From: a virus
Lineage: Duplodnaviria > Caudoviricetes
IMG/VR virus record: IMGVR_UViG_3300025401_000648
Reading direction: 5' to 3' (one strand)
DNA length: 64,000 nucleotides
Shown here: one piece after another, positions 19,566-22,626 of the stretch
How positions within the stretch are numbered: position 1 is the stretch's first letter
Layout: each line of letters opens with the position of its first letter
The notes under the pieces: generated by a model
Told to the model about the DNA's origin: nothing
What the model saw: the letters and a program-made list of their open reading frames with translations, nothing else
The model's database searches: none
Program-made: the position numbers and the translations under genes

Positions 19566-20006
19566 TTAAATTAAGTCCAAGAGCAATTCTAATTTGGCCT
19601 TGACCACTCGATTGTTGAGACTGTTTTTTACCCCCGAATGCAAGGGTTTGGGCCACGCACTGTAACTACACCAAGCATAGCTAGTATGTTCGTCATTTAG
19701 TACAGGAATAAACTCCTTTTCAACAATCAACACATAGGTATTGTATTGAAAATTATCATCGCTGGACACAAATAATTCTAACGGAACTATTTTTTTTATT
19801 TTAGGGGGTTTGCCCACTTCTTCCAATATTTCTCTATGTAGCGCATCAACAGCAGTGACATCGGTGGGTTCTTTTTTGCCACCAACTAGTCCCCAAGTAC
19901 CAGATGTTTTACCTTGATTTCTTAACAGTAATAGAAACCTTTTGGTGTCCTCAGCAAGGAATAGTCCGCCACTACAAATAATTTGATTTAAAGGATTAAC
20001 CGCCAT
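19566..20006 (-). CDS. NUDIX hydrolase
   Basis: Nudix box GGKKEPTDVTAVDALHREILEEVG. Confidence 0.9.
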   Translation of the reverse strand: MAVNPLNQIICSGGLFLAEDTKRFLLLLRNQGKTSGTWGLVGGKKEPTDVTAVDALHREILEEVGKPPKIKKIVPLELFVSSDDNFQYNTYVLIVEKEFIPVLNDEHTSYAWCSYSAWPKPLHSGVKNSLNNRVVKAKLELLLDLI

Positions 20007-21352
20007 GATGCCTTATCGTATACACCATCGTAACTCTTGCCCCACTCGGTGCCGTTCCACATGTATTGTATACCCGTATAAGCATTAGTTATGTATGTTA
20101 CAGTAGTGCTGGCAGCAGAATTGAATATAACACTCCATGATGATCCATTCCACTGTATAATGTCATTGGCATGAGCAACAAATCCTGACCCATCACTGTT
20201 TAACCATGCTGACGGACCTATCACAGGCACAGAGTGTATATCCTCTAAAATTAGATATCTAGTGCCTGCTACTTTGACACTGGGGTTAAATGTATCTGGA
20301 TTAATAACAGCATCCACTGAACCTCTTCCATCAATAATAGTATTTTCAGGTATGGTGGCTGCATCAAAATTTAATATCATCTTTGTTTCATCTGTTGGAC
20401 TTAGAGTCATGAATGCCACAATTTCTAAACCGTTGGGTTTCTTTAATCTTAGTTGACTCAACCCTGCTGTAAATTTTCCTGGATACAAGCCTAATACTGC
20501 GTTCCAAGAAATTGGCGGCTGATTGGCATTTATATCTAAATTAGTAAATGTGTTGGCCTGCAAAGTAGCAACACCATCTAAAACCAGCAAGTTGTAATCA
20601 GTTGGTGTAACGACCACACTGACATCTGGGGTGCCAAATATTTGAGCACCATAACCTGCTTCTAGTCCAGATATCAATCCCTGTGTATCATCAAATACAT
20701 TGGAAATAATTTGTGTAACAATGTTTAGTTGTGTGACATTGGCTGGGGGTGAAATCCATATAGGGCTTTCAAAAACCAATGATGATATATCAATATCTTG
20801 TTCCAGTCCTTGAGGAATTTGTCTGCTGGACCAATTACCTTGATCAGTCAATGTTAACGTGATAAGACTGGTCCAGTCCACATAGTTATCGGTAGTTTGT
20901 AAATTTAAACTAGGATTGAACACCATGGCAATTTGTTCAATTATTTGAAATTTTTGATCAGTATTACTGGTCCAGATATCTGCGGCAAAAGTTACCTTAT
21001 AGGGACTGGGCATGATTCTTTCCACAGTGTAATTATTACCCTGTGTGTTTAGCAAATTCCCATTGGCATCAATAGCACGTTGTTGCAGATTGACTGTACT
21101 GACAAATGTTGGATCCTGTAGTCTAGTGCGATCATACTTCATATCCTTGATGTAGCAGGCAATCAAAGGTGCGCTGGGCACTGTATTTTCACTGTTCTTT
21201 CTCAGTATTTGACCCACTTGTCTACTTAGGTCGCCGTAACGTACTGGTACCTGTGTAATTTTACCTGTGGCATCTTTATAACTGAAATTACTCATCAGTC
21301 GAATAAATTGAGTGATATATCGGCGCAGTTGGCCATCATAAAAATATTGAAT
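19988..21352 (-). CDS. T4 gp15-like tail terminator/sheath stabiliser (proposed ATT start; ORF track starts at 21295)
   Basis: PSPYK..F..DIWTSNTDQK.QI.EQI...FNP core; reading frame extends upstream as IQYFYDGQLRRYITQFIRL with no ATG/GTG/TTG before an in-frame TAA. Confidence 0.7.
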   Translation of the reverse strand: MQYFYDGQLRRYITQFIRLMSNFSYKDATGKITQVPVRYGDLSRQVGQILRKNSENTVPSAPLIACYIKDMKYDRTRLQDPTFVSTVNLQQRAIDANGNLLNTQGNNYTVERIMPSPYKVTFAADIWTSNTDQKFQIIEQIAMVFNPSLNLQTTDNYVDWTSLITLTLTDQGNWSSRQIPQGLEQDIDISSLVFESPIWISPPANVTQLNIVTQIISNVFDDTQGLISGLEAGYGAQIFGTPDVSVVVTPTDYNLLVLDGVATLQANTFTNLDINANQPPISWNAVLGLYPGKFTAGLSQLRLKKPNGLEIVAFMTLSPTDETKMILNFDAATIPENTIIDGRGSVDAVINPDTFNPSVKVAGTRYLILEDIHSVPVIGPSAWLNSDGSGFVAHANDIIQWNGSSWSVIFNSAASTTVTYITNAYTGIQYMWNGTEWGKSYDGVYDKASWRLIL

Positions 21353-21356
21353 AATA

Positions 21357-21404
21357 TTACAACGGCGTTAAGCCGTAGCCTCCTTTAAATTTATAGATAT
21401 ACAT
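21357..21404 (-). pseudogene. 15-codon mini-ORF MYIYKFKGGYGLTPL, probable collapsed GIY-YIG endonuclease relic
   Basis: ATG 4 nt after the gp14-like stop; MYIYK resembles GIY-YIG N-termini; contains AAAGGAGG and an ACGGC/GCCGT hairpin. Confidence 0.5.
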
Positions 21405-21408
21405 ATTT

Positions 21409-22626
21409 TTAGAGATCCGCTTTAGGTTTTAATACTTTACTCAATGGTTGACGTTGTGGATATGTTAATCCATCATTCAGTGTTATAGTAGCAGTATTAT
21501 TAATGAATCCAGTTTTTTCTGTTAGTCTAACTTGTTGTCCAGCAAACACTGTACCTGGCGCAACATCACTGCTACTGAAATTATTCATGGTCATTCTAAC
21601 ATCTTTTTGCCATTGTATCCAATGTTTACCATCAAATCTATAAAGTACATTTGGCAAATAGTCTGTTCTTAAAAAGAATTGACCTACCACTGCTCCGCCT
21701 GGAAATTCAATACCAGCGCTAAATGGTGCGCCATCAGGAGGTTGAGTACCACCTCCGTTGGGATAAGAAACATATTCAATCTTGCTGGGACTATGTAGCA
21801 CAATACTGGCATCATAGGCAGGTTGTTCAATACTAGCATCTTGATCCATTGTTGATGCGTCGGCAACGTCTAATAGCCCAGCATCTGTAAGAGGTACGAT
21901 GTACAAAGGGGTAGTGTCAAATCCACTTTGTGGCGCATCCAGTGTTGCTTGGGCGATAATTTGATTATTAATATCAACACTTTGTTGATATGTACTCAGT
22001 AGGTCTCGCAATGTGCTGCCGTCTCCATTACCAGCATCTTGATCAAAGATTTGTTTGTATTCTTGACTATCTACTAGAGGTACACATTTAGCACGTAGTA
22101 AGTGCGGGTACCATGTAGGGCTATATCCAGCCGCTGGACGAGTAACGTCTTGAACAACATAAAATCTTTTTAAGGCCACCAACGATTCGTCTAGTCCATA
22201 CTCGTCTTTTAAGTGAGGTAATTCAATGACATCGCCAGGCATAATTTTTCTAGACAGCGCATCTACAGTGCCGCGTAGGTGAAACATGATAAAAATATTA
22301 TCGTTACTTAAAAACATACCAAACTGACTTAGATTAAAATCCAAATCCTGCATGGTATAGATTCCACGGATAACATAAATGTCAGGAGCATAGTTTCTAT
22401 CTCTATTTTCCATTAAAAGCACATCTTGGATACTTAATTCAGGAATAGGATTAGCACTAGTATCTGGAACTGCCGGGGTAGCAGTCCCCTCTGCTGGATT
22501 TACAGGTCCTAGATATTTGTGAACAAATACATCAGTCCCACCAACTTGGAATTCTTCATTGATAATTCTATCAAGGAATCTAAAATCATTGCCCTTTTCG
22601 GGTTTGTATAAACTTAGACGAGGAAT
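21409..22626 (-). CDS. T4 gp14-like neck protein (proposed ATT start; ORF track starts at TTG 22653)
   Basis: PRLSLYKPEKGNDFRFLDR N-terminus, GGTDVFVHKYLGP, DLDFNLSQFG, GDVIELPHL; AAGGAG lies 7 nt before ATT. Confidence 0.7.
   Translation of the reverse strand: MPRLSLYKPEKGNDFRFLDRIINEEFQVGGTDVFVHKYLGPVNPAEGTATPAVPDTSANPIPELSIQDVLLMENRDRNYAPDIYVIRGIYTMQDLDFNLSQFGMFLSNDNIFIMFHLRGTVDALSRKIMPGDVIELPHLKDEYGLDESLVALKRFYVVQDVTRPAAGYSPTWYPHLLRAKCVPLVDSQEYKQIFDQDAGNGDGSTLRDLLSTYQQSVDINNQIIAQATLDAPQSGFDTTPLYIVPLTDAGLLDVADASTMDQDASIEQPAYDASIVLHSPSKIEYVSYPNGGGTQPPDGAPFSAGIEFPGGAVVGQFFLRTDYLPNVLYRFDGKHWIQWQKDVRMTMNNFSSSDVAPGTVFAGQQVRLTEKTGFINNTATITLNDGLTYPQRQPLSKVLKPKADL

Follow-up and report, generated by a model that had tools for sequence, protein, structure and literature searches.

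A 52-nucleotide (nt) insert at the start of a gp15-like tail gene, located in a 64,000 nt stretch of viral DNA (IMG/VR record IMGVR_UViG_3300025401_000648, Duplodnaviria, Caudoviricetes; hereafter the window), joins elements of translation initiation for which few precedents are available. To our knowledge, the standard examples comprise only two split ribosome binding sites (RBS), those of T4 genes 38 and 25, and two AUU-starting genes of Escherichia coli; the T4 sites were reportedly studied by Nivinskas et al. in 1999 and by Malys and Nivinskas in 2009. At both T4 genes, a hairpin bridges the gap between Shine-Dalgarno sequence (SD) and start codon, shortening it from 22 to 5 nt for gene 38 and from 27 to 11 nt for gene 25 (PMC3014915). 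Confirmed AUU starts are those of infC and pcnB, and the near-cognate class AUA/AUC/AUU reaches approximately 0.1–3% of AUG initiation in E. coli (bioRxiv 10.1101/063800). Within an optimised initiation region in vitro, AUA can perform as well as AUG, and AUU is weaker and context-dependent (PMC5499595).

The locus in the window is read here as the scar of a homing endonuclease gene, from which a hairpin-bridged SD would direct gp15 initiation to an AUU codon at 21352-21350; a probability of roughly 0.7 is assigned to this reading. The resemblance to T4 genes 38 and 25 lies in the linear distance between SD and start (26 nt, compared with 22 and 27), in the bridged distance (7 nt, compared with 5 and 11) and in the kind of gene, which is late, structural and part of a T4-like tail module. 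In contrast to the AUG codons used there, AUA, AUC or AUU (AUH) is found here, and the element is mobile, derived from an endonuclease 3' end and patchily distributed; no sequence similarity to the T4 sites was found, and the support for the present site comes from sequence comparison. With infC and pcnB the locus shares a near-cognate AUU preceded by an SD, the lack of a canonical alternative and presumably low or IF3-sensitive expression; it differs in that the third base varies between A, C and U among relatives, G being absent, and in that a mobile element brought the codon in. The comparison does not imply autoregulation of gp15 in the window. The nearest published analogue of an endonuclease-linked cassette forcing unusual translation is T4 gene 60, where an insert of about 50 nt in an essential phage gene is likewise linked to an endonuclease, contains an SD and hairpins, imposes non-standard translation, has entered one site repeatedly and remains after 'hit and run' (bioRxiv 10.1101/2022.08.31.505936); here, the insert stands at the very start of the gene and leads to new initiation instead of bypassing. 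Free-standing Seg and Mob endonucleases of T-even phages are comparable as GIY-YIG genes of variable presence between conserved genes, with a TAATG overlap as in mobE/nrdA (PMC2988022), whereas in the present clade the insertion lies behind the start codon of the target, so that the target is deprived of its ATG and relies on the 3' end of the element.

All features of the junction are located on the minus strand. The preceding gp14-like neck or structural gene (21409-22626) was assigned from the list of open reading frames (ORFs) and from synteny with the structural protein gene that precedes gp15 in PA5oct, GAP32 and IMG/VR relatives. Its stop TAA (21411-21409) is separated by 4 nt (AAAT) from a relict ATG (21404-21402), which corresponds to the gp15 start of relatives with a plain junction and to the endonuclease start codon of endonuclease-bearing relatives; TAA, 0–4 nt and ATG were found in every allele class. 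The ATG is followed by the 52-nt insert (21401-21350), and CAA TAT TTT TAT GAT GGC begins at 21349. From the relict ATG, a mini-ORF of 15 codons, MYIYKFKGGYGLTPL (21357-21404, stop at 21359-21357), is opened in the +1 frame relative to gp15; it is composed of a 5' relic, MYIYKF (21404-21387), and a 3' relic from 21386 onwards. The insert contains the SD AAAGGAGG (21379-21386), an adjoining 19-nt hairpin (21360-21378) with a C-G closing pair, a U.U mismatch, a 5-bp stem ACGGC/GCCGT and the loop UUAAC (stem-loop core ACGGC/TTAAC/GCCGT at 21376-21362), and a 7-nt spacer TAATATT (21353-21359), which holds the stop codon of the mini-ORF and a first in-frame ATT (21355-21353). The predicted gp15 initiation codon is the second ATT (21350-21352), at the position of the ATG in plain alleles. 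Upstream, the gp15 frame is closed by the TAA in the hairpin loop (21370-21368); between this closure and codon 2, the frame consists of CGC CGT TGT AAT ATT ATT alone, and neither ATG nor GTG nor TTG occurs upstream of the first canonical in-frame start, an ATG at 21293-21295 (MSNF..), which is rejected as the real start. Re-annotated from the AUU, gp15 would occupy 19988-21352 with 454 codons and the stop at 19990-19988. Within the window, the 30-nt core of the insert occurs once, and shuffles of the window gave 0 matches to it. A sequence-only reading of the window had reported these coordinates, the mini-ORF, SD, hairpin and two ATT codons correctly base for base.

Read through from 21367, the gp15-like ORF was matched by the Pfam profile PF16724 (T4-gp15_tss; E 5.9e-27, 94.9 bits, cutoff 25) over profile positions 1-211, position 1 falling on YFYDG, 17 residues upstream of the ATG at 21295. 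The T4 gp15 structures 4HUD/3J2M were recovered with E 1.3e-7 and an alignment from residue 4 (YFYNSSFRRY), the N-terminus of T4 gp15 being MFG-YFYNSSFRRY. The product is annotated as a tail sheath stabiliser or tail completion protein, and its 453-codon ORF is uninterrupted, with conservation along the entire length. In cultured jumbo-phage relatives, gp15 starts 2–4 residues ahead of the YFYDG-type motif, as at the PA5oct junction TAATG AAC TAT TTT TAC (MNYFYDEQLRRY) and the Phosso gp15 start (MALDYFYDGQFRAY). Among 80 IMG/VR relatives with 45–61% identity, the usual junction reads TAA(T)ATG GAT or TAATG CAA, followed by [YHWF]FYDGQ, so that plain relatives have the gp15 N-terminus M-(D/Q/N)-[YHWF]FYDGQ directly after the gp14 stop. 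Two contigs (L050, L053) read TAATG CAA TAT TTT TAT GAC, exactly the MQYFYDGQ that had previously been proposed as the ancestral start, and other plain relatives have the bare-ATG junction TAAT ATG GAT TAT TTT (MDYFYDGQ). Plain gp15 genes are without an SD and overlap the gp14 stop (TAATG). The gene order structural protein, gp15, NUDIX is common to the window, PA5oct, GAP32 and Vibrio phage 2.275.O; in the window, the NUDIX hydrolase gene (20006-19566, minus strand) follows gp15 directly, and a 395-amino-acid (aa) ORF (19552-18365, minus strand) comes next.

The origin of the insert was traced by comparison with relatives which carry an ORF of 170–190 aa between gp14 and gp15, namely L025/27, L057, L074/75 and eleven further contigs (those named being L102, L104, L117, L120, L121, L132, L137 and L152). 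Full-length alleles begin MYIYKFTH..CYIGQT at an ATG overlapping or following the gp14 stop. Three alleles were tested against the GIY-YIG profile PF01541, two of which scored 24.1 and 25.1 bits, above the cutoff of 22.6, and the third 20.9 bits. In the window, ATG TAT ATC TAT AAA TTT (18 nt, MYIYKF) equals the first six codons of L104, L152 and L120, and the sequence from AAGGAGGC on aligns with the 3' end of full-length alleles, which terminate in ..(K/R)EASV with the stop codon in the hairpin loop. Since the first six codons and the 3' end are both shared with full-length alleles, the window carries an out-of-frame internal deletion of the endonuclease gene, and by this alignment a GIY-YIG homing endonuclease gene of about 180 aa has collapsed to the 52-nt insert. 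A collapsed GIY-YIG element had been surmised before any relatives were compared, and the full-length ORFs now found occupy the same site. The six codons retained cover the 'GIY' motif and are too short for a profile match; an intact paralog was not detected in the window by tblastn of the full-length endonucleases.

Measured from the gp14 stop to gp15 codon 2, the alleles form a decay series of full genes (583–529 nt), partial remnants (272–77 nt) and most copies at 68–34 nt, the window having 59 nt. The floor of 34 nt corresponds to GGAGG, helix and spacer abutting the gp14 stop. In a gp15 tree of 100 distinct proteins, cassette and plain alleles were interleaved, and at least 13 changes were forced by well-supported branches; sampling for the tree was partly by cassette presence, so that frequencies mean little. 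Near-identical gp15 pairs differ in having a full gene or a minimal scar (L137 vs L090; L102 vs L092/L134). Such a distribution has the pattern of repeated homing, after which the nuclease gene probably decayed fast.

The 3' piece of the element, which is also carried by several relatives without an endonuclease, was searched for in IMG/VR using a cassette pattern scan. This returned 70 contigs from approximately 60 datasets (counted from contig names) with 44 distinct cassettes, each consisting of GGAGG, a 19-nt hairpin, 7 nt and, as a rule, AUA, AUC or AUU, and gp15 was located downstream in 70/70. The distance from the helix end to codon 2 is 10 nt (7 nt and one codon) in 69 of the 70; at the start position, these 69 contigs have ATA (26), ATC (18), ATT (15) or TCG (10), and the remaining one (L104) has ATT one nt later. 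AUH thus stands at the start position in 59 of 70 cassettes, or 60 with L104 included, and ATG, GTG or TTG in none. The GGAGG columns are invariant or nearly so across the 44 distinct cassettes, and none of these has G in the third position of the start codon, though a single change would create AUG. The unit of SD, hairpin, spacer and AUH was never lost, as is expected if gp15 depends on it; the SD and hairpin first noticed in the window alone recur in 70+ contigs at fixed spacing, with AUA, AUC or AUU at the start position of most. Outside this group, the cassette was not recovered: the junction sequence had no nucleotide match among 50,697 phage records, the nearest virus record (G001) does not contain the region, the cassette consensus gave chance hits alone (E ≥ 2) against cultured phages, and Rfam returned nothing at E ≤ 1 for 21250-21500.

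The minimum free energy (MFE) fold of the window RNA contains the 19-nt helix C21378-G21360, whose energy of −6.9 to −8.9 kcal/mol puts it with the most stable helices in the family. In the 44 distinct cassettes, the three central G-C pairs and the closing C-G pair are essentially invariant, and the latter is part of the MFE fold in 41/44 variants. Pair 17/23 occurs as U.G, U-A or C-G and pair 13/27 in five types (U-A, A-U, G-C, G.U, U.G); pair 12/28 is a U.U mismatch in 40/44 sequences. Paired cells amounted to 78%, compared with 27–72% for slid-partner controls. A pseudoknot between loop UUAAC and spacer was not conserved. On comparative grounds the support for the helix is moderate, being limited by low diversity. 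With the helix formed, GGAGG abuts it, and the linear distance of 26 nt between GGAGG and the AUU at 21352 is reduced to 7 nt. The bridging geometry described in the sequence-only reading was refined, its spacings of 8 and 11 nt being corrected to 4 and 7 nt, as the helix extends to C21378-G21360. The first ATT is only 4 nt from the helix, and its position is not conserved as ATH in the family. Hairpin-less modules were found in L057 (AAGGAG-AACGACA-ATT), in L056 (GGAG-AGATAAA-ATC) and at gp14 of the window itself (AAGGAG-AATTAAA-ATT), each with 7 nt; as hairpin-less relatives keep about 7 nt, they serve as an independent check of the bridged spacing.

Selection on the reading frame was assessed from nonsynonymous (pN) and synonymous (pS) diversity in codons 2–18 of 49 distinct cassette-bearing sequences. 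In the gp15 frame, pS was 0.82 and pN 0.24 (ratio 0.29), and the other two frames gave ratios of about 1.2. Purifying selection acts on the 17 codons that precede the first ATG. Where the window has its downstream Met, many cassette-bearing relatives have Leu, Phe or Val, so a start at 21295 is not a general solution, and it would delete a segment conserved back to T4. It had earlier been allowed that homologs might start at MSNF, with unconserved residues upstream; homologs were found to start near YFYDG, and the upstream residues are the ones under selection. From positional homology, the second ATT was chosen as the start, and gp15 most likely initiates at AUU 21352-21350, which would yield (f)Met-QYFYDGQLRRY. 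The absence of AUG from the start position could possibly reflect protection from the endonuclease or a requirement that little gp15 be made. Starts with SD and ATH ahead of the first ATG were surveyed in the window; the junctions of gp14 and gp15 were the only convincing ones, so that AUH use is not genome-wide. A scan of the window for an unusual initiator-like tRNA was negative.

The following course of events is proposed. In a clade of uncultured jumbo phages, a GIY-YIG gene would have inserted immediately behind the gp15 ATG and taken over this codon together with its translational coupling to the gp14 stop. From its own 3' end, the endonuclease gene would in return supply a replacement initiation region for gp15, composed of a strong SD (AAGGAGG), the adjoining 19-nt hairpin, a 7-nt A/U-rich spacer and AUH in place of ATG. 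In the lineage of the window, the out-of-frame internal deletion would then have removed nearly the whole endonuclease, leaving its first six codons and the cassette. The folded hairpin may bring the SD from 26 to approximately 7 nt from the AUU, by the split-RBS principle of T4 genes 38 and 25, and the weak AUU codon may set a low level of gp15.

Several observations weigh against this interpretation. UCG, which occupies the start position in 10/70 cassettes, is not a near-cognate codon, and codon-anticodon pairing at the start triplet can therefore not be the whole story. TCG-type cassettes are listed for L025/L027, L063, L073, L090, L105-L107, L109, L112, L114, L119 and L131; except for L107, with ATC one codon upstream, they have no in-frame near-cognate codon between the upstream stop and codon 2. 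In 9 of the 10, UCG is preceded by A, giving AUCG, and these alleles look like AUC alleles which lost one spacer base and gained one G. For these, the spacing from the SD may by itself set the frame; otherwise, AUCG would have to be read by skipping one base. Covariation in the helix is modest, with two pairs showing double-sided changes, and 13–25 of 500 shuffles reach the observed values; the outer helix has two U.U mismatches in most variants, and folding of the 81-nt region gave no significant gain in stability over shuffled sequences (z −1.2). T and G of the NTG triplet (N, any base) that terminates the helix on its 3' side are invariant even though the T is mostly unpaired, and this triplet could serve a separate function. 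Finally, the mini-ORF of the window runs through SD and hairpin, and reinitiation could dominate over SD-led entry.

This last point leads to the alternative that survives best, a relay of termination and reinitiation, considered unlikely but deserving some weight. Ribosomes leaving gp14 would enter the ATG at 21404, translate the 15-codon relic ORF to the UAA at 21359-21357 and restart on an AUU 1–4 nt further on, the SD merely tethering the 30S subunit and the hairpin being incidental. The geometry of the window suits such a relay, as TAA is followed after 4 nt by ATG, and UAA precedes the first AUU by 1 nt and the second by 4 nt. In addition, coupling, or scanning over a few codons around a stop, is common in T4 at free-standing endonuclease genes and the genes next to them (PMC2988022), and in full-length and many collapsed alleles the upstream ORF ends at the loop TAA, 19 nt before AUH. 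Across the family, however, neither the frame nor the length nor the stop position of the relic ORF is conserved, and it is the SD, hairpin and 7-nt spacing that are conserved instead; in at least 13 contigs, a minimal cassette stands 0–3 nt after the gp14 stop (inserts of 34–37 nt), with no ORF ending near AUH. The term 'restart', used earlier for this site, thus holds for the window insofar as reinitiation after the mini-ORF is possible there, and does not describe the conserved feature of the family. A relay would moreover be compatible with the hairpin-bridged start, as the start codon is the same.

Recoding from the relict ATG, either by gene-60-like bypassing of the 52 nt or by +1 frameshifting from the mini-ORF into gp15, is judged very improbable. 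An endonuclease-linked insert of about 50 nt with SD and hairpin, placing the mini-ORF in +1 relative to gp15, superficially resembles the T4 gene 60 cassette (bioRxiv 10.1101/2022.08.31.505936), and a sister allele class (type B, see below) seems to need a −1 slip. Yet matched take-off and landing codons, a stop after the ATG (TAT follows instead) and a nascent peptide are all missing, and the loop TAA at 21370-21368 confines any shift into the gp15 frame to CCG TTG TAA, where tRNA re-pairing is not available. Full-length alleles have the same cassette at 530–580 nt between ATG and gp15, beyond any bypass, and an upstream ATG is altogether absent from several minimal cassettes. The cassette variants were also inspected behind the NTG triplet for a common +1 frameshift or hop site, and none was found; the NTG frame reaches TAA after 1–2 codons in many variants and runs on in others.

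Equally improbable is an N-terminally truncated gp15 starting at the ATG at 21295 (MSNFSYKD), for which the conserved codons upstream would be a fossil. This ATG is the first canonical start and is the one reported by the ORF finder, but no SD precedes it, the Pfam and T4 gp15 alignments reach 17 residues further upstream, the codons concerned are under purifying selection in cassette-bearing phages, and many cassette alleles have Leu, Phe or Val in place of this Met. An assembly or sequencing artefact or a dead gene, suggested by nothing beyond the oddity itself, can practically be dismissed, because contig L138 from a different metagenome differs elsewhere (99.5% identity over 4.6 kb, 10 mismatches, 5 gaps) and shares the identical junction, a homologous cassette occurs in seventy further contigs, and the long gp15 ORF is intact; the assembly error considered at the outset is thereby removed.

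The proposed hairpin-bridged AUU start combines known principles in a new way; a published description was not found in the open-access literature, and a search of open-access papers gave none linking homing endonucleases with AUU/ATT (AUH) starts. For annotation, it would follow that gene finders truncate gp15 at Met25, gp14 likewise, and the same is expected in every phage with such scars; a simple cassette rule would correct many starts of virion genes. The strong SD, hairpin and AUH appear to have been kept by selection in dozens of lineages, and with 44 distinct variants, hairpin-less versions and the UCG exceptions they provide a natural test series for split RBS and non-AUG codons. The locus further illustrates how a free-standing homing endonuclease can enter an essential gene at the first codon boundary without intron or intein, and why the 34-nt scar would be irreversible once the nuclease gene has decayed.

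A related arrangement was noted at the start region of the gp14-like gene (22769-22614, minus strand), with an SD at 22640-22634 and a probable start ATT at 22626-22624. It has the same design without a hairpin and with a different nuclease, reading AAGGAG-AATTAAA-ATT CCT CGT (I-P-R-L-S-L-Y). In relatives, gp14 shows a late-promoter-like ATAAATA box, 6–7 nt and ATG CCA AGA CT (MPRL); in the window, the promoter-proximal ATG CCA A.. opens a relic ORF of 51 aa that is HNH-like (..YTEKHHIDNCK..). Among 64 distinct gp14 contexts from the fetched loci, AGGAG-7/8 nt-ATT/ATA/GTG replaces the plain ATG in five. The spacer ACTAAAAT(T/C) is common to the modules with a direct SD and to some hairpin cassettes. 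Plain gp14 genes (L008-L033 etc.) start 6–7 nt after the conserved ATAAATA box without an SD, which suggests that the plain gp14-gp15 pair may be expressed from a leaderless or near-leaderless late transcript.

A second 3' end belonging to this endonuclease family, type B, was represented by 5 distinct variants in 18 contigs (L034-L038, L040, L074/L075, L156-L166; e.g. L034:2520-2610). It reads GGAGGG-6 nt-GTG GAT TTT TTT ATG A.., with a T run of always 7. The GTG frame ends after 8 codons, and gp15 (FFYDGQ) is in the −1 frame, so that a −1 slip on U_UUU_UUU would yield MDFFYDGQ as in plain alleles. The SD is located 11 nt before the slippery heptamer, a dnaX-like geometry. At codons 2–4, type B may therefore rely on programmed −1 frameshifting or on slippage during transcription.

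A wider interpretation is offered tentatively and is thought to be rather less probable than not: the homing endonucleases of this clade may act as 'start-codon hijackers' of virion genes, of gp15 by GIY-YIG and of gp14 by HNH enzymes. The non-standard starts imposed in exchange would then take at least three forms, a split SD with AUH, AUCG read as AUG with an extra base, and GUG with an obligatory −1 slip on U_UUU_UUU, plain AUG being avoided for immunity to re-cleavage. If this were true, the scars would amount to a naturally occurring collection of minimal signals for bacterial recoding and initiation, and AUG avoidance would guard against re-cleavage like the 50-nt gap of T4 gene 60.

Upstream of the SD, TATAAATT at 21395-21388 (minus strand) matches the T4-type late promoter box at 7/8 positions and is formed by the relic codons TAT AAA TT. 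A TATAAATT-type box derived from the endonuclease I-Y-K codons is also present in other collapsed alleles and absent from minimal cassettes. If active, the box would place the transcript start near the SD and yield a transcript free of the relict ATG.

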